A stretch of 6,262 bases of DNA from a virus: the IMG/VR virus record IMGVR_UViG_3300003103_000001, positions 1-6,262 of that record. One strand, given 5' to 3'. Under the pieces are notes generated by a model. The model had not been told where the DNA came from. It searched no databases and was given only the letters and a program-made list of their open reading frames with translations. Both the position numbers and the translations under genes were made by a program. Shown here one piece after another: positions 1 to 6,262 of this stretch; position 1 is the first letter of the stretch, and every line of letters begins with the position of its first letter.

Positions 1-52
1 AAATTTGCCCAAATTTGTCGAGCGTATAATTATCCTTTTCATATTGATTATA
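1..52. repeat. Terminal redundancy (copy 1): identical to 6211..6262, so the contig is circular with a 6,210-nt unit length
   Basis: Base-by-base comparison: aaatttgcccaaatttgtcgagcgtataattatccttttcatattgattata occurs at both ends of the window. Confidence 0.97.
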
Positions 53-201
53 AATTTAATTGTGATGATTTACGCCCTTTTGATATTGTATTTCATGCCG
101 AACGTAAATATATAAATCTGATTCATCAGCATCTCGATGATATCTATAATAATAATGTTTCACTTAAAAGACACACTACCCTAAAATTTCATGAAGATTA
201 A
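1..201 (+). CDS. VP4: Replication initiator protein (HUH endonuclease, VP4 / phiX A-like), C-terminal 66 codons plus stop. This is the continuation of 5098..6262 across the circular junction.
   Basis: Frame 1 is open from base 1 (KFAQICRAYNYPFHIDYKFNCDDLRPFDIVFHAERKYINLIHQHLDDIYNNNVSLKRHTTLKFHED) to TAA at 199..201. Position 6211 (equivalent to position 1) is a first codon position of the ORF starting at 5098, so the two pieces join in frame. Confidence 0.88.
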   Translation, partial: KFAQICRAYNYPFHIDYKFNCDDLRPFDIVFHAERKYINLIHQHLDDIYNNNVSLKRHTTLKFHED

Positions 202-2709: not shown

Positions 2710-3924
2710 ATGTCATTCTTTAAATCTCTTTGGAATGGTATAAAGTCTGTTGGCAAAGGTATAGGCTCTGCTCTTACTGGTAACCCATTAGGCTTTATTT
2801 CTTCTGCTGTCGATATTGGTAAATCTATTTTTGGCTCAAACTCTGCTTCTAAAGAGCAAGCAAAACAAAATGAGTTTAATGCTACTGAAGCCGAAAAAAA
2901 TAGACAATTCCAAGCCGAACAATCCCAAATTCAGCGTGATTGGCAAAGTCCAGTCGCCCAGATGCAACGTTACTCCGAGGCTGGTTTAAATCCTAATTTG
3001 GTCTATGGTCAGATGCAACAAGCCCCAGTCAGTGGTGTTGCAGGTGCGCAAGCGCAATCTGTTGGTATGTCGGGAAAGCAACAACTTGCCCTTGCTCATT
3101 TTAATATTGCTGAAAAAATCTCTGAAATGAAGGTACAGCAAGCTCAAGCAAATGACCTTAATGCTTCTGCCGAGCAAAAACGTGCTGACGCCAAACGTTT
3201 AGGCATTTCCAATGAGTATGATTCTCAAACTTTACAATGGCGTATTACTTCTGCATGGCATAATATGCAATCATCTGCTCACTCCGATAGGCTTGGTGAA
3301 CTTGCTGTCGATGTCCAGGAAATTGAAACATCTATCCGTAAAGCGTTACATGCTAACGATTACGATACTCGTTTTGCCATTGACAATCTGCGCCTTGATA
3401 ATCTTACTAAAATCGCTACTTTAAATAACCTCGAACAAAATACCGATTATATAGCCGAGATGCAAGAGTATGTCGGCTATAACGCTGAAACTGGTCGTAT
3501 TTCTGCGAATGCTCTCGCTTTAAATGCCAGTTCCTACGCTAAGTTAGTGCCTTATTTGATTTATCAAGCGAGTGAGCAAGCGGGTTTATTTCATTCTCAA
3601 GCAGAGCATACCGACAAAGACGCTGAATTATTTCCAGTTCGTGCGCTCAAAACTTTTATGGAAGCATACAAGTTTTACCAAGACGGCACATTTACACAAA
3701 ATGATTTAATTCGTCTTGTCAATCGCAACTTCAACCTTGTCAATTATGGTGTTGAAGAACCTTCGAAAGGTGGTGTTTTTGGTACTGGCTTAAGTTGGCA
3801 ATCCTTTCGCCATGCCGGCTCAGGTAAAAAAATCGATAATAATCGACAAACTCAAGAAGCCGTTGAAAAGAACGGCATTAAATTCATTTATGATTTTCTT
3901 TCCAATTTCACTAATAAAAAGTAA
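2710..3924 (+). CDS. VP2: Minor capsid / DNA pilot protein (Microviridae VP2, phiX H-like), 404 aa from the ATG at 2710
   Basis: In frame with track ORF 2686..3924, but that TTG start lies inside the 2678-2692 hairpin, so the ATG at 2710 (MSFFKSLWNG...) is preferred. The N-terminus is Gly/Ser-rich (GKGIGSALTGNPLGFISSAVDIGKSIFGS) and the centre is Q/A-rich. The block QRDWQSPVAQMQRYSEAGLNPNLVYG matches the conserved AGLNP motif I associate with microvirus VP2 proteins. Confidence 0.85.
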   Translation: MSFFKSLWNGIKSVGKGIGSALTGNPLGFISSAVDIGKSIFGSNSASKEQAKQNEFNATEAEKNRQFQAEQSQIQRDWQSPVAQMQRYSEAGLNPNLVYGQMQQAPVSGVAGAQAQSVGMSGKQQLALAHFNIAEKISEMKVQQAQANDLNASAEQKRADAKRLGISNEYDSQTLQWRITSAWHNMQSSAHSDRLGELAVDVQEIETSIRKALHANDYDTRFAIDNLRLDNLTKIATLNNLEQNTDYIAEMQEYVGYNAETGRISANALALNASSYAKLVPYLIYQASEQAGLFHSQAEHTDKDAELFPVRALKTFMEAYKFYQDGTFTQNDLIRLVNRNFNLVNYGVEEPSKGGVFGTGLSWQSFRHAGSGKKIDNNRQTQEAVEKNGIKFIYDFLSNFTNKK

Positions 3925-3936
3925 TTGGTCTTCGTT

Positions 3937-3955
3937 GGTGGAACGCACCACCTTT
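3937..3955 (+). other. Short hairpin just after the VP2 stop
   Basis: ggtgg (3937-3941), loop aacgca, ccacc (3948-3952), then ttt. Confidence 0.4.
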
Positions 3956-3990
3956 AAACACTCAGATTTTTAAACTTGATTTATCCATTA

Positions 3991-4027
3991 TAAGTGCTAC
4001 GTTGTGAAACGTGGCACTTATTTTATC
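3991..4027 (+). terminator. Strong intrinsic-terminator-like hairpin (13-bp stem, GTGA tetraloop, T-tract)
   Basis: taagtgctacgtt (3991-4003) pairs with aacgtggcactta (4008-4020), with one T:G wobble (3998:4013). The loop gtga (4004-4007) fits GNRA. It is followed by ttttatc (4021-4027). Likely the end of the late VP1-VP2 transcript. Confidence 0.6.
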
Positions 4028-4064
4028 ATCATCGCAGTACACTCACACGCACGGCACCACTTTG

Positions 4065-4131
4065 AGGGGCATTATGCCCCTAAGCAATCGTTAGATTGCG
4101 TTACATTCGAAAATTGCGAAGCAATTTATCG
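4065..4131 (+). other. Cluster of three adjacent stem-loops
   Basis: A: aggggca/tgcccct (4065-4071 / 4075-4081, loop tta). B: gcaatc/gattgc (4084-4089 / 4094-4099, loop gtta). C: aaattgc/gcaattt (4111-4117 / 4121-4127, loop gaa), extended by cga/tcg (4108-4110 / 4129-4131) with A4128 bulged. B and C share the gcaat/attgc arm sequence, so alternative pairings are possible. Confidence 0.6.
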
Positions 4132-4145
4132 CATTGTTTATTCTT

Positions 4146-4161
4146 AAAAAAAAATTTTTTT
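4146..4161. repeat. A9T7 homopolymer palindrome
   Basis: aaaaaaaaa (4146-4154) is followed directly by ttttttt (4155-4161). This could be an easily melted or intrinsically bent element. Confidence 0.9.
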
Positions 4162-4197
4162 CATTATGCCGAGCGCAGCGAAAAATGTACGAAGTGC

Positions 4198-4233
4198 CAG
4201 CCGTAAATAACTACGTAGTAGTTATTATGGCTG
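4198..4233 (+). other. 16-bp bulged hairpin (candidate origin stem-loop)
   Basis: Upper stem: aataactac (4206-4214) pairs with gtagttatt (4218-4226), loop gta. Lower stem: cagccgt (4198-4204) pairs with atggctg (4227-4233), with one G:T wobble. A4205 is bulged. Confidence 0.7.
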
Positions 4234-4237
4234 TGTA

Positions 4238-4263
4238 GCGACAACCCGAAGCGACAACCCGAA
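4238..4263. repeat. Perfect tandem direct repeat, 2 x 13 nt (gcgacaacccgaa), iteron-like
   Basis: 4238-4250 is identical to 4251-4263. The repeat begins 4 nt after the 3' end of the 4198-4233 hairpin. Confidence 0.95.
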
Positions 4264-4271
4264 GAACGCAA
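4261..4271. repeat. Dispersed 11-nt direct repeat gaagaacgcaa, copy 1 (overlaps the end of the second 13-mer)
   Basis: Identical 11-mer at 4389-4399. A partial gaacgca also occurs at 3941-3947, in the hairpin after VP2. Confidence 0.8.
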
Positions 4272-4334
4272 GCAACTTTCGCTCGATGATGATTTAACTA
4301 CTTATATTTACTGCCTTTAGTTATTTGACTATTC

Positions 4335-4342
4335 TATATTTG
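4335..4342 (+). promoter_or_regulatory. Candidate Bacteroidota-type -7 box (TAtaTTTG) without a good -33 element
   Basis: tatatttg matches TAnnTTTG. The 10-mer tatatttgtt is repeated exactly at 4571-4580. No TTTG lies 19-21 nt upstream (only ttta with spacers of 15 or 24 nt), so support is weak. Confidence 0.3.
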
Positions 4343-4388
4343 TTATACACTCACTAACTTTTACTATCTTCTTACCTTACGATGTAAG

Positions 4389-4399
4389 GAAGAACGCAA
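4389..4399. repeat. Dispersed 11-nt direct repeat gaagaacgcaa, copy 2 (spans the 3' end of hairpin D and the start of hairpin E)
   Basis: Identical to 4261-4271. Confidence 0.8.
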
Positions 4400-4514
4400 C
4401 AAGCCACATTTGTTGCAAGTTAGATATTCCGTAACCCCTCTCGTCTTTGTGGACGGAATTTATAACGTGATGTCTATCAGCTTGATGCCGAAACGAAGTG
4501 GAGCGTTATAGTTC

Positions 4515-4550
4515 CCTTGTTATTTATTGTTAAATAATAAGGATATTTTT
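4515..4550 (+). terminator. 28-bp AT-rich palindrome followed by a T-tract (terminator-like; alternatively a protein-binding or recombination site)
   Basis: ccttgttattta (4515-4526) pairs with taaataataagg (4531-4542), with one mismatch and loop ttgt. It is followed by atattttt (4543-4550). Confidence 0.4.
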
Positions 4551-4578
4551 GCGATTTGTCAAAAATGCTGTATATTTG
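4548..4578 (+). promoter_or_regulatory. Bacteroidota-type promoter for the 162-aa ORF / Rep operon
   Basis: TTTG (4548-4551), a 19-nt spacer, then TAtaTTTG (4571-4578). This fits the Bacteroides -33 TTTG / -7 TAnnTTTG consensus at canonical spacing. It lies about 30 nt upstream of the ATG at 4608, and the leader has no Shine-Dalgarno sequence. Confidence 0.55.
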
Positions 4579-4607
4579 TTGCACGTTTCACTAACATTTT
4601 ATAAATC

Positions 4608-5097: not shown

Positions 5098-6262
5098 ATG
5101 TGTAAAGGTCATGGCATATATAAATGTGGCAAGTGCTATTCTTGTAGAGCACGCAAACGCAATGATATAATGATTCGTCTAACCGAGCATTATAGAGGTC
5201 TGTATCGTCATTTCATACAACCTCATATTGCTGTTATGTTTGGTGTTATGACCTTTCACGATAGCTTTATTCCAAATGTTAATTTAAACCTCGATGTTGT
5301 TTGTGAGTGGCAACGCCCAGTACAAAAATTTCTCGCCAATGTTCGTGCTAAATATCCATTTCTCAATTTCCAGTACTTTATAAGTGCTGAATTTGGTGAT
5401 AAAACTGGTAGATTGCATTTGCACCCCCTTTTCATGGTAACTCCTAAATATGAATTGCTCGAGAGTGTTGGAAATTATACAAACCTTTCACAACTTAAAC
5501 GCAAGTTAGATTGTATTTCAACCCTCGAGGACGGCTCACTTTATACTCGTGTTTCTCCTCTTTTTAACTCACACAAGTATGGTGTTACTACTCGTAAACA
5601 CGATAATTTAACAGCATTCCAAGCGTACATTTATGATTTACTGCAAGAGGAGTGGTATTTTGGATTGTCAGATATTGAGCCAGTCCTTTCGGTTAACGCT
5701 GTCAAGTATGTTACTAAATACACACTTAAAGCAACTGACCCTCGTTTTGCTCGTCACTACTGGCGTTTAAAGTCCGATTTTTGGAAACCTCTCAAAAAAT
5801 CCGTTATCCCTCATAATGTCTTACACAAATGTAAATCTAAATCAAAATATGATGTTGGTTTTGATATAGAAAAGCATACAATGTATAAGCAATATTTGAT
5901 TAGTAATGGCATCGGTAAATATTTTTTTGAAACACAACAAGCCCATGAACTTCTGCACAATCTCGCTTTTGTCGAGCAACGTGTTAAAGTTCCCTTAAAT
6001 TTACATGATGATATCGAAGTTTCTTTAATACGTCCGAATAAACGTCTTGTTTATCGTGACCCCACATATATCGGAAAAGATAAAAATGAGTATTCTTTGC
6101 CTACCTCTTTTAAAAGCCATATTTTGGACCTTTATTTCGGTAATTTCACTCCTGAACGTGCTGTTGTTGGTCAATCTCTACAATTTCAGTTCAAATTATC
6201 GAGCATTTGCAAATTTGCCCAAATTTGTCGAGCGTATAATTATCCTTTTCATATTGATTATA
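5098..6262 (+). CDS. VP4: Replication initiator protein (HUH rolling-circle endonuclease, Microviridae VP4 / phiX A-like). It runs off the window end and continues at 1..201 (437 aa total).
   Basis: Not in the ORF track because there is no stop inside the window. I translated all 388 codons and found no stop. N-terminal Cys cluster: MCKGHGIYKCGKCYSCR. Motif I-like: FGVMTF. HUH motif: GRLHLHPLF (5407-5433). Dual-tyrosine motif: KYVTKYTLK (Tyr codons 5707-5709 and 5719-5721), the YxxKY arrangement of the phiX174 A protein. A downstream SNGIGKY block is also present. Confidence 0.93.
   Translation, partial: MCKGHGIYKCGKCYSCRARKRNDIMIRLTEHYRGLYRHFIQPHIAVMFGVMTFHDSFIPNVNLNLDVVCEWQRPVQKFLANVRAKYPFLNFQYFISAEFGDKTGRLHLHPLFMVTPKYELLESVGNYTNLSQLKRKLDCISTLEDGSLYTRVSPLFNSHKYGVTTRKHDNLTAFQAYIYDLLQEEWYFGLSDIEPVLSVNAVKYVTKYTLKATDPRFARHYWRLKSDFWKPLKKSVIPHNVLHKCKSKSKYDVGFDIEKHTMYKQYLISNGIGKYFFETQQAHELLHNLAFVEQRVKVPLNLHDDIEVSLIRPNKRLVYRDPTYIGKDKNEYSLPTSFKSHILDLYFGNFTPERAVVGQSLQFQFKLSSICKFAQICRAYNYPFHIDY
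6211..6262. repeat. Terminal redundancy (copy 2), identical to 1..52
   Basis: Exact 52/52 identity with the window start. Confidence 0.97.

Follow-up and report, generated by a model that had tools for sequence, protein, structure and literature searches.

The stretch of DNA analyzed here (hereafter the window; 6,262 nt, IMG/VR record IMGVR_UViG_3300003103_000001) represents a circular microvirus genome of 6,210 nt, all genes of which are carried on the + strand; the packaged strand of microviruses is of mRNA sense. A noncoding region of 683 nt in this genome houses a 16-bp hairpin and a pair of 13-nt direct repeats, and when the genome was scanned in 40-nt windows, the three of greatest stability all fell within 3985-4236. 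A strong terminator, whose loop (GTGA) is of the RNA-type GNRA class, is located at 3990-4021, just upstream of the cassette that contains the hairpin. Downstream of the hairpin-repeat module lies a TATATTTG box at 4335, which was not conserved in relatives, and the only conserved promoter is situated ~340 nt downstream of the module. A separate structured element with conserved loops occupies 4371-4549, beside the Rep-operon promoter; it was present in every relative and is referred to here as the universal element. The Rep protein (5098..6210 joined to 1..198) contains HUH (HLH) and YxxKY motifs and matches PF23343, a Pfam family common to gpII. Judging from the lack of Shine-Dalgarno sequences and from TAnnTTTG-type promoter boxes, the host is probably a member of the Bacteroidota. 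Rfam and tRNA scans of the window returned nothing relevant; the only Rfam match in the window was weak and fell within a 162-aa gene. In the searchable literature, neither replication origin has been defined for uncultivated microviruses, outside phiX174 and G4.

Hairpins, tandem repeats and the conserved cassette

The 16-bp hairpin is located at 4198-4233 on the + strand, and its sequence and coordinates were as given in the first-pass annotation, including a 9-bp upper stem, a 7-bp lower stem and a bulged A. The upper stem is formed by AATAACTAC (4206-4214) and GTAGTTATT (4218-4226) around a GTA loop (4215-4217; C-GTA-G, 4214-4218), whereas the lower stem pairs 4198-4204 with 4227-4233 and contains one G-T pair (4203/4228); the bulged A is at 4205. 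A perfect stem of at least 9 bp was also found in 38 of 200 dinucleotide shuffles of the genome, and the hairpin alone is thus unexceptional. Its DNA folding energy of -10.3 kcal/mol was the third best of all 40-nt windows in the genome (shuffled-genome minimum, -8.9 +/- 1.2). We regard the hairpin as real because it is conserved as a structure, and not because of its stem length or energy. When five variants were compared (the window, the relatives L028, L004 and L034, and bajarodmic virus 164), all 16 pairs were 100% paired, four pairs had undergone compensatory changes and one had been lost in a coordinated manner, and the observed covariation values were reached in none of 500 shuffles. 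The variable part was the loop, only 3-4 nt long, which read GTA, GCA, GAA or GTCA and always followed the form GNA or GNNA. Three of these loops (GTA, GCA and GAA) have the GNA form with a closing C-G pair, and the GTCA loop of L028 yields GCGTCAGC, a GCGNNAGC motif. Moreover, the bulged A and the G-T pair were invariant, leaving the two half-sites unequal. A XerCD/dif-like site was considered and rejected, the arm spacing being 3 nt rather than 6-8 and the stem being too short to mimic the 28-bp dif site.

The tandem repeats begin 3-4 nt 3' of the hairpin stem. Two perfect 13-nt direct repeats of AGCGACAACCCGA were present on the + strand at 4237-4262 (4237-4249 and 4250-4262); the unit had been annotated previously as GCGACAACCCGAA at 4238-4263, which is the same repeat shifted by one base. 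TRF reported period 13, 2.2 copies and 100% matches, making this the best tandem repeat in the window, and when the genome was dinucleotide-shuffled 200 times, perfect tandem duplications never reached 13 nt (maximum, 10). The repeat core ACAACCCGAA was invariant in both copies and in five relatives (L002, L004, L007, L028 and L061), and the first 3 nt of the unit varied. In the L034 group, another 13-nt unit (type B, CAAGTACGTGAAG, as opposed to type A, AGCGACAACCCGA) was found in 4.4 or 2.4 copies, and repeat copy number was polymorphic. When the L034 Rep was used to search for intermediates in the evolution of the repeats, only relatives of ~33% identity were recovered, all of which were without the module.

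The hairpin and repeats form the 3' end of a conserved noncoding cassette of ~230 nt (4040-4270, + strand). Sliding identity along the intergenic alignment showed the cassette to be 85-95% identical between the window and L004, compared with 30-60% for the flanks, and no other nucleotide match between these genomes was as significant. Lineages with cassettes this similar encoded proteins that were only 24-58% identical. Six hairpins were counted between 4065 and 4233. The first, a GC-rich hairpin of AGGGGCAT-T-ATGCCCCT at 4065-4081, lies in the most stable 40-nt window in the genome; in L004 a G-C pair was replaced by C-G, a compensatory change, and L002 carried another variant. It is followed at 4085-4100 by GCAATC-GTTA-GATTGC, a hairpin conserved in L004 with a GNNA loop closed by C-G (C-GTTA-G, 4090-4095), and at 4107-4126 by AAATTGC-GAA-GCAATTT, the apex of which is the DNA mini-hairpin motif GCGAAGC (at 4116) and corresponds to GCGTTAGC in L004. 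A GCGCAGC mini-hairpin (GC-GCA-GC) at 4173-4179 is part of the box GAGCGCAGCGA. This mini-hairpin reads GTGCAAC in L004, L007 and L061, the closing C-G having been changed to T-A on both sides, and related boxes were seen in L003, L026 and L001 (GAGCGTAGCGA) and in L034 (GCGCCAGC). Another mini-hairpin, GTAC-GAA-GTGC at 4187-4197 (GNA loop closed by C-G; C-GAA-G, 4190-4194), was kept as GCAC-GWA-GTGC in L002, L004, L007, L028, L034 and L061. All of these hairpins are on the + strand, and further palindromes built on GCAAT/ATTGC were found within the cassette. When the + strands of eight lineages were scanned, GCGNAGC/GCGNNAGC motifs were 11-fold enriched in noncoding DNA (11 vs 8 matches, or 2.07 vs 0.18 per kb; p = 8e-7). 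GCGTAGCG occurred four times, always in the post-pilot noncoding region, and was absent from the - strand. A review sets out the GNA/GNNA rule for DNA mini-hairpins and places such motifs in RSF1010 ssiA as well as where primase starts on the complementary-strand origins of G4, St-1 and alpha3 (PMC13037366).

It had also been noted that long-range pairing might close the module, possibly by chance. The pairing was real, given that CGAGCG/CGCTCG, extended by TCATTAT/ATGATGA, was part of the minimum-energy fold of the window (z -2.5), but it was variable among relatives. A closing stem was also present in the minimum-energy folds of L028, L004 (19 bp, z -7.7) and L061 (z -3.9), was weak in L002 and was absent in L007. 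Its 3' strand (CGCTCG and ATGATGA; 4280-4292, + strand) falls beyond the conserved cassette; even so, its complementarity to the 5' strand of the stem was maintained, via different sequences, in the window, L028, L004 and L061. That 5' strand contains TTATGCCGAG (4164-4173, + strand), which is identical to the RSB core (TTATGCCGAGAAAA...) of the ssoA-type origins of plasmids pT181, pE194 and pSELNU1. The match was exact in L004 and L007, 9/10 in L028 and L061, and 8/10 in L002, and the RSB-like sequence was placed in the basal (loop-distal) stem in the folds of the window, L028, L004 and L061. A CS-6-like hexamer, TAGCGA, was found at 4236-4241, also on the + strand, where it overlaps the start of repeat 1 and is the only + strand TAGCGW in the genome. 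It begins 72 nt after the RSB start, compared with 52-67 nt in the three plasmids, and is located in unpaired sequence 3' of the hairpin, not in a terminal loop; the corresponding hexamer is TAGCAA in L007 and TTGCAA in L002. Moreover, TAGCGACAAC matched TAGCGACAGC of pE194 at 9/10 positions, and the composite RSB...TAGCGW pattern gave one match, vs 0.01 expected per window. For the plasmid elements, RSB has been described as part of the loop-distal stem and as required for polymerase or primase to bind, and CS-6 as the site where the primer ends.

Distribution of the module and its relation to Rep

Roughly 245 relatives were recognized by VP1, and among the relatives compared, the syntenic position gave a divided picture. 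The module was present in L002, L004, L007, L028 and L061, but was missing from about half of the clade, namely at the syntenic position in L003/L030, L026, L031, L032/33 and L057/58, all of which encode homologous Reps. Outside the clade, a search of a phage collection with the whole noncoding region recovered only bajarodmic virus 164, in which the 16-bp hairpin is found without repeats at a non-syntenic place, after the capsid gene; its VP1 was ~25% identical, and its Rep (311 aa) was 26% identical over 135 aa to that of the window. Searches of IMG/VR for close relatives, employing three versions of the hairpin pattern, the Rep protein and the universal-element loop, gave no real match. Pattern scans of metagenomes and genomes yielded one true relative, L007, the remainder being chance matches, mostly in RBS/ATG contexts. 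No prophage copies were found in bacterial genomes by pattern scans that needed GCC...GGC and would miss L034-type stems, and neither the module nor the cassette matched anything when plasmids were searched.

In the first-pass annotation, the hairpin and repeats were proposed to be an origin-like module for Rep. The module would then be the viral-strand (double-strand) origin: the 13-nt repeats would be iterons bound by Rep, and the nick would fall within or next to the hairpin, in the manner of circo-, nano- and geminiviruses, pMV158-type plasmids and Ff gpII. What stood of this proposal was the structure: the module is conserved, structured and replication-origin-like, and the hairpin, the tandem repeats and the long-range closing stem are all real. 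As in circovirus, nanovirus and geminivirus origins and the pMV158 dso, the stem-loop is directly flanked by short tandem repeats, and this layout was conserved. The hairpin was kept while the repeat unit differed by lineage (type A or type B, both of period 13), which is the pattern expected of specificity determinants beside a common hairpin, and polymorphic copy number is often seen in iteron arrays. In addition, Rep carries the motifs of an HUH enzyme, and with no phiX-type origin found elsewhere in the genome, its origin must be of a different type. The window's Rep belongs to the same broad family as that of phiX174, with a two-tyrosine motif. The viral-strand origin of phiX174 consists of 30 nt inside gene A, nicked at 4305/4306, and needs neither hairpin nor repeats; when this 30-nt origin (CAACTTG/ATATTAATAACACTATAGACCAC) was compared with the window, no similarity was detected (best local score 18 vs a shuffle mean of 19.9).

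The Rep mechanism, however, was poorly supported. Nicking had been placed at or close to the loop. In the origins of circo-, nano- and geminiviruses, it is the loop that contains a conserved nick motif, whereas the 3-4-nt loop of the hairpin is variable, without a conserved nick motif or anything resembling the nonanucleotide. The comparison of relatives had been suggested as a way to see whether repeat sequence co-varies with Rep, and it does not: the repeats of the window and L061 were identical at a Rep identity of 34%, L004 combined a Rep of 35% identity with an unchanged 10-nt core, and the closest non-conspecific Rep (L003/L030, 40-41% identical) came from genomes without the hairpin-repeat module. 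A search for a Rep segment specific to module-bearing genomes found none. The absence of the module from about half of a clade with homologous Reps, and the occurrence of the hairpin without repeats, elsewhere in the genome and with a distant Rep in bajarodmic virus 164, also argue against a Rep nick site here. Taken together, these observations make the module an unlikely viral-strand origin. The universal element (4371-4549), which has conserved loops and adjoins the Rep-operon promoter, is a better fit for a Rep origin and the better candidate for the Rep nick site. CTTRATG, a phiX/pC194-like nick core, occurs within it at 4481-4487, but with three matches vs 2.25 expected, this was not significant. 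The first-pass annotation overlooked that microviruses need two origins.

Candidate roles of the module

In G4-type microviruses, the complementary-strand origin is known to be laid out as a cluster of hairpins between genes, and conserved intergenic hairpins of other microviruses were proposed previously as complementary-strand start sites. The reading that we favor, to which we give about an even chance, is that the hairpin and repeats make up the 3' portion of a horizontally exchanged complementary-strand (single-strand) origin that is read by a host enzyme. The structures and their covariation, the motifs and the discordance with Rep are observed; a priming role, the identity of the enzyme and what the repeats do are inferred, as follows. 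The signal would act only on the packaged viral (+) strand. After infection, the circular single-stranded DNA would be coated by host SSB, and the cluster of unusually stable GNA/GNNA hairpins closed by C-G (4085-4100, 4107-4126, 4173-4179 and 4187-4197), together with the 16-bp hairpin, would stay folded. Pairing of the RSB-like sequence (4164-4173) with 4280-4292 would close the module, and the 13-nt repeats would be left single-stranded, or nearly so, between the large hairpin and the closing stem. A host enzyme might then recognize this fold and lay down a short RNA primer on the repeat region, directed toward or stopping at the hairpin base; candidates are RNA polymerase, by analogy with plasmid ssoA origins, and primase, by analogy with the origin of phage G4. 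The single-stranded DNA would subsequently be turned into the replicative form by host DNA polymerase. Because it would be read by a host enzyme, such a module would be independent of the phage Rep and could be exchanged between distant microviruses as a cassette. Plasmid sso elements are known as position-flexible, host-limiting and exchangeable modules.

Comparison with known systems is consistent with a complementary-strand origin in several respects. The G4, St-1 and alpha3 origins belong to the same virus family, consist of an intergenic hairpin cluster on the packaged strand with GCGNAGC/GCGNNAGC-type SSB-resistant mini-hairpin caps and a priming site beside a hairpin, and are Rep-independent. 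However, the G4 origin has three hairpins, no tandem repeats and no RSB-like motif, and the likeness is one of layout and mini-hairpin motifs; the host of the window, probably one of the Bacteroidota, also differs. With ssoA origins (pT181 palA, pE194, pMV158/pLS1), the window shares the identical RSB core in a loop-distal stem, a GAGCG-N-AGCGA box with a GNA/GNNA mini-hairpin, a downstream CS-6-like TAGCGA (72 nt vs 52-67 nt), and a structured element of ~130-230 nt that behaves as an exchangeable cassette unlinked to Rep. This likeness rests on short motifs, because a search of the module with an nhmmer profile of seven staphylococcal ssoA sequences gave no significant match and pairwise local alignments with ssoA were marginal (2/200, 10/200, and one not significant). 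Unlike in ssoA, the CS-6-like hexamer of the window falls outside any terminal loop and is altered in some relatives, and the box is separated from CS-6 by the inserted 16-bp hairpin and tandem 13-mers. To our knowledge, no single-strand origin has tandem direct repeats, and the repeats, the most striking feature of the module, are therefore unexplained by the sso analogy. The intergenic region of Ff phages (f1/M13) contains a terminator, a hairpin complementary-strand origin used by host polymerase, and the gpII origin, with an AT-rich stretch between the origins. The window has the order terminator, hairpin cassette, AT-rich stretch and second structured element, and its Rep matches the Pfam family shared with gpII; there is, however, no sequence relationship with Ff, and the functions of the window's parts are putative.

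Other observations count against a complementary-strand origin. CS-6 is degraded in L007 and L002, whereas the ACAACCCGAA core is invariant. The host is probably one of the Bacteroidota, whereas ssoA origins are known from Firmicutes and not from Bacteroidota phages. Folding energies of the + and - strands revealed no asymmetry. Finally, the half of the clade without the module would have to start its complementary strand elsewhere, and the universal element could itself be such a site.

Part of the evidence would also suit duplex operators, that is, inverted and direct repeats bound in the replicative form by a host or phage protein that governs transcription or replication timing, or some other accessory role in host adaptation. 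Compensatory changes are also expected in an inverted repeat bound by a protein dimer, and covariation hence does not discriminate. The GCAAT/ATTGC palindromes of the cassette, an invariant repeat core with variable spacers, which is typical of protein-binding sites, and a patchy, laterally transferred distribution all suit such an accessory module. However, no encoded protein was found to co-vary with the module, the loops obey the GNA/GNNA rule of single-stranded DNA hairpins, which is not required of a duplex operator, the half-sites are unequal, and the only conserved promoter is ~340 nt downstream. We consider operators unlikely, slightly more so than a Rep nick site. That the region acts as RNA, either as a structured untranslated segment or as a small RNA made by read-through or from an internal promoter, is highly improbable: all genes share the module's strand, hairpins would form in RNA too and the TATATTTG box could be such a promoter, but the strong terminator lies just upstream, the box is downstream of the module and not conserved, Rfam had no match in the noncoding region, and the loops are of the DNA-type GNA and not RNA-type.

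Significance for gut microviruses

Returning to the complementary-strand origin, a more specific version is proposed only tentatively, and we would not be surprised to see it fail. Gut microviruses of Bacteroidota would carry a plasmid-like exchangeable complementary-strand origin cassette, composed of an RSB-like stem, GNA-capped hairpins and an expandable 13-nt array with a CS-6-like hexamer per unit, which is swapped independently of Rep and capsid and sets which host converts the phage single-stranded DNA to duplex. If this plasmid-like reading is true, sso-type modularity and a tandem-repeat priming platform would each be described for the first time in the Microviridae, and the single-strand origins of phages and of rolling-circle plasmids would be connected across phyla.

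In the current study, two candidate elements were told apart in one abundant gut clade, an exchangeable hairpin-repeat cassette that does not track Rep and a universal element by the Rep promoter. Should the cassette be a complementary-strand origin read by the host, it would constitute a horizontally moving determinant of host range, and swaps of noncoding cassettes would then matter for the inference of hosts and of recombination in microvirus metagenomics.

Genome organisation and its noncoding region

The window holds one whole microvirus genome, a circle of 6,210 nt, plus a 52-nt terminal overlap in which bases 6211-6262 copy bases 1-52 (assembly overlap of the circle); Rep (437 aa; motifs HLH and YVTKY) therefore spans the window ends (5098..6210 joined to 1..198). 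The + strand carries all genes, which also include VP1 (417-2219), the pilot protein (2686/2710-3924), and ORFs of 58, 149, and 162 aa. The pilot gene is followed by a 683-nt noncoding region (3925-4607). A post-pilot noncoding region of 620-810 nt was found in all recovered relatives (VP1 identity 58-99%; pig, human, and other gut data) except L057/58, where a noncoding region lies directly 5' of Rep instead. Among phages with names, those of Parabacteroides are closest (VP1 identity about 31%). No gene of the window was preceded by a Shine-Dalgarno sequence, and TAnnTTTG boxes occur at 4335 and 4571; given what is known of Bacteroides promoters and translation, these features point to a Bacteroidota host.

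An intrinsic terminator (3990-4021) consists of a 14-bp stem, a GTGA loop, and a T-run; its apex CGTTGYGAWAACG is clade-conserved, and its lower stems covary (L004, L026, L057, and L058). Bajarodmic virus 164 carries, 3' of its pilot gene, a perfect GC-rich hairpin of roughly 90 nt (3466-3555) whose loop contains GCGTAGCGA. In the window, segment 4548-4578 holds a near-palindrome TTTGCGATTTGTCAAA, kept in L026, L034, L057, and L058 and diverged in L031, followed 3' by the Bacteroidetes-type -7 box TATATTTG. This segment is probably the main promoter with its operator, and the type of -7 box, combined with the absent Shine-Dalgarno sequences, is a clue to the host phylum.

Conservation of the hairpin, tandem repeats, and closing stem

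The 16-bp hairpin (4198-4233) and the two 13-nt repeats (4237-4262) described in the first-pass annotation were confirmed in presence and position, and they are part of a replication-type element. None of 200 shuffled genomes contained a perfect tandem duplication of 13 nt. By stem length or energy alone the hairpin is statistically unremarkable; it stands out by conservation. All 16 pairs were kept in each of the five distinct variants compared, with compensatory changes at four pairs (A-T to G-C in L028, C-G to G-C in L004, and two lower-stem changes in L034), and the observed pairing and covariation values were reached in none of 500 shuffles. Moreover, the bulged A and the G-T pair were invariant. 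In bajarodmic virus 164, one pair is lost on both sides. In that genome (1847-1954), both arms of the hairpin recur farther 3', first the 3' arm (GAGTTATTATG) and then the 5' arm (CGTAAATAACTC), on either side of a GC-rich hairpin, and the whole makes up an inverted, interrupted duplicate.

The suspected closing stem formed when the window, L028, L004 (19 bp, z -7.7), and L061 (z -3.9) were folded; it was poor in L002 and absent from L007. Its 5' strand is conserved; its 3' strand is lineage-specific in sequence, with complementarity kept. The repeats also vary. The window and L061 have identical units, of which L004 shares the 10-nt core (type A), and the L034 group retains the hairpin with the unit CAAGTACGTGAAG (type B) at an unchanged period. 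Copy number changes rapidly, since L034 (4.4 copies) and L035 (2.4 copies) are 100% identical outside a 26-nt, two-unit array difference (L034 3828-3884). An 11-mer, GAAGAACGCAA, occurs directly 3' of the window's repeats (4261-4271) and again directly 3' of the first hairpin of a downstream structured element (4389-4399); it is kept in the window's own group, L004 does not share it, and the recurrence may be fortuitous.

The proposed Rep-origin reading of the module

According to the first-pass annotation, Rep would bind the repeats as iterons and nick in or near the hairpin loop; we consider this unlikely. Circovirus, nanovirus, and geminivirus origins hold a conserved nick motif in the loop, whereas here the loop is 3-4 nt long and is the hairpin's only freely varying part (GTA, GCA, GAA, or GTCA). 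The proposed co-variation of iterons with Rep did not hold, as identical 13-mers occur in L061, whose Rep is 34% identical, and a 10-nt repeat core is retained in both copies in L004 (Rep 35% identical), with no nucleotide similarity found between the Rep genes of L004 and the window. The nearest non-conspecific Reps (L003/L030, 40-41%) come from genomes without a comparable hairpin or repeats, and the module is likewise missing from L026, L031, L032/33, and L057/58. Furthermore, the hairpin alone, 94% identical, lies 3' of the capsid gene in bajarodmic virus 164 (VP1 about 25% identical to that of the window; Rep of 311 aa). A Rep segment specific to module-bearing genomes was looked for and not found, nor was a phiX-type origin sequence found in the window. 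The different unit at the same period in the L034 group is the look expected of specificity repeats; however, in no phage protein were the two type-A lineages closer to each other than to type B. Any protein binding the repeats is more likely of host origin. In the L034 group, the N-terminus of Rep (L034 4981-5050) has also lost a Cys cluster, C...CxxCxxC, that all the other Reps of the clade have.

A better candidate for the Rep nick site would be a predicted structured element (4371-4549) located directly upstream of the Rep-operon promoter in every clade member, including L057/58, because it combines universal presence and Rep linkage with a loop that is conserved while its stem varies. Its hairpin (stem 4426-4432/4453-4459) covaries around a conserved loop containing TCTCGT (4439-4444; TCTCGCATTTAAGGG in genomes other than the window), compensatory changes affect 10 of 16 predicted pairs, and CTTGATG lies at 4481-4487; the second domain contains CTTRATGSCGAAAC. 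It may equally well serve, throughout the clade, as the start site of the complementary strand.

A candidate complementary-strand origin cassette

On the evidence, the module is better read as a complementary-strand origin cassette, strand-specific and recognised by the host, than as a Rep iteron origin, and we hold the cassette reading at about even confidence. The cassette (4040-4270), which ends just 3' of the second 13-mer, is a series of hairpins, five of which have GNA or GNNA loops closed by C-G: GCAATC-GTTA-GATTGC, AAATTGC-GAA-GCAATTT (containing GCGAAGC; GCGTTAGC in L004), GTAC-GAA-GTGC, GC-GCA-GC (4173-4179; GT-GCA-AC in L004, L007, and L061, a compensatory closing-pair change), and the 16-bp hairpin. 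The same rule defines exceptionally stable DNA mini-hairpins, which SSB binds poorly and which have been reported in RSF1010 ssiA and, in G4, St-1, and alpha3, where primase starts at the complementary-strand origin (PMC13037366). On the + strand, such motifs are 11-fold enriched in noncoding regions (8 lineages, p = 8e-7); all four occurrences of GCGTAGCG lie in the post-pilot noncoding region, frequently within a terminal loop (L003, L026, and bajarodmic virus 164). The loop of the terminator just 5' of the cassette is, by contrast, of the RNA-type GNRA kind. CATTATGCC occurs at 4070-4078 (apex and 3' arm of a GC-rich hairpin, 4065-4081) and at 4162-4170.

The module also resembles ssoA-type plasmid single-strand origins. 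Their RSB motif is described as a loop-distal stem that polymerase or primase needs in order to bind, and CS-6 as a primer stop. The window's TTATGCCGAG (4164-4173, overlapping the second CATTATGCC) matches the RSB core of pT181, pE194, and pSELNU1 at every position and likewise forms a loop-distal stem; the CS-6 motif, TAGCGA, follows 72 nt downstream, versus 52-67 nt in these plasmids. In addition, TAGCGACAAC agrees with pE194 TAGCGACAGC at 9/10 positions, and the box GAGCGCAGCGA resembles ssoA GAGCGTAAGCGA/AGCGCCAGCG. For the composite pattern, the expectation is 0.01 occurrences per window, and TAGCGW occurs once on the + strand of the genome. We treat ssoA as a working analogy and do not claim membership, because an ssoA profile search did not detect the module, pairwise alignments were marginal, CS-6 is degraded in L002 and L007 whereas the repeat core ACAACCCGAA is invariant, a comparable 10-mer lies by chance inside L034 VP1, and the known ssoA origins come from Firmicutes.

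A duplex operator or accessory module is somewhat less probable than even the Rep origin. An RNA element is improbable. Of all parts of the module, the tandem 13-mers are the least well explained; under the cassette reading, each unit would bring a CS-6-like (T/A)AGC(G/A)A, and the single-stranded repeats, lying between hairpin and closing stem, would be the platform for priming or termination. Between the window (about 4040-4270) and L004 (1095-1330), the cassette is 85-95% identical, whereas its flanks are 30-60% and the proteins 24-58% identical; this difference implies that a noncoding cassette was laterally exchanged or replaced between microvirus lineages.
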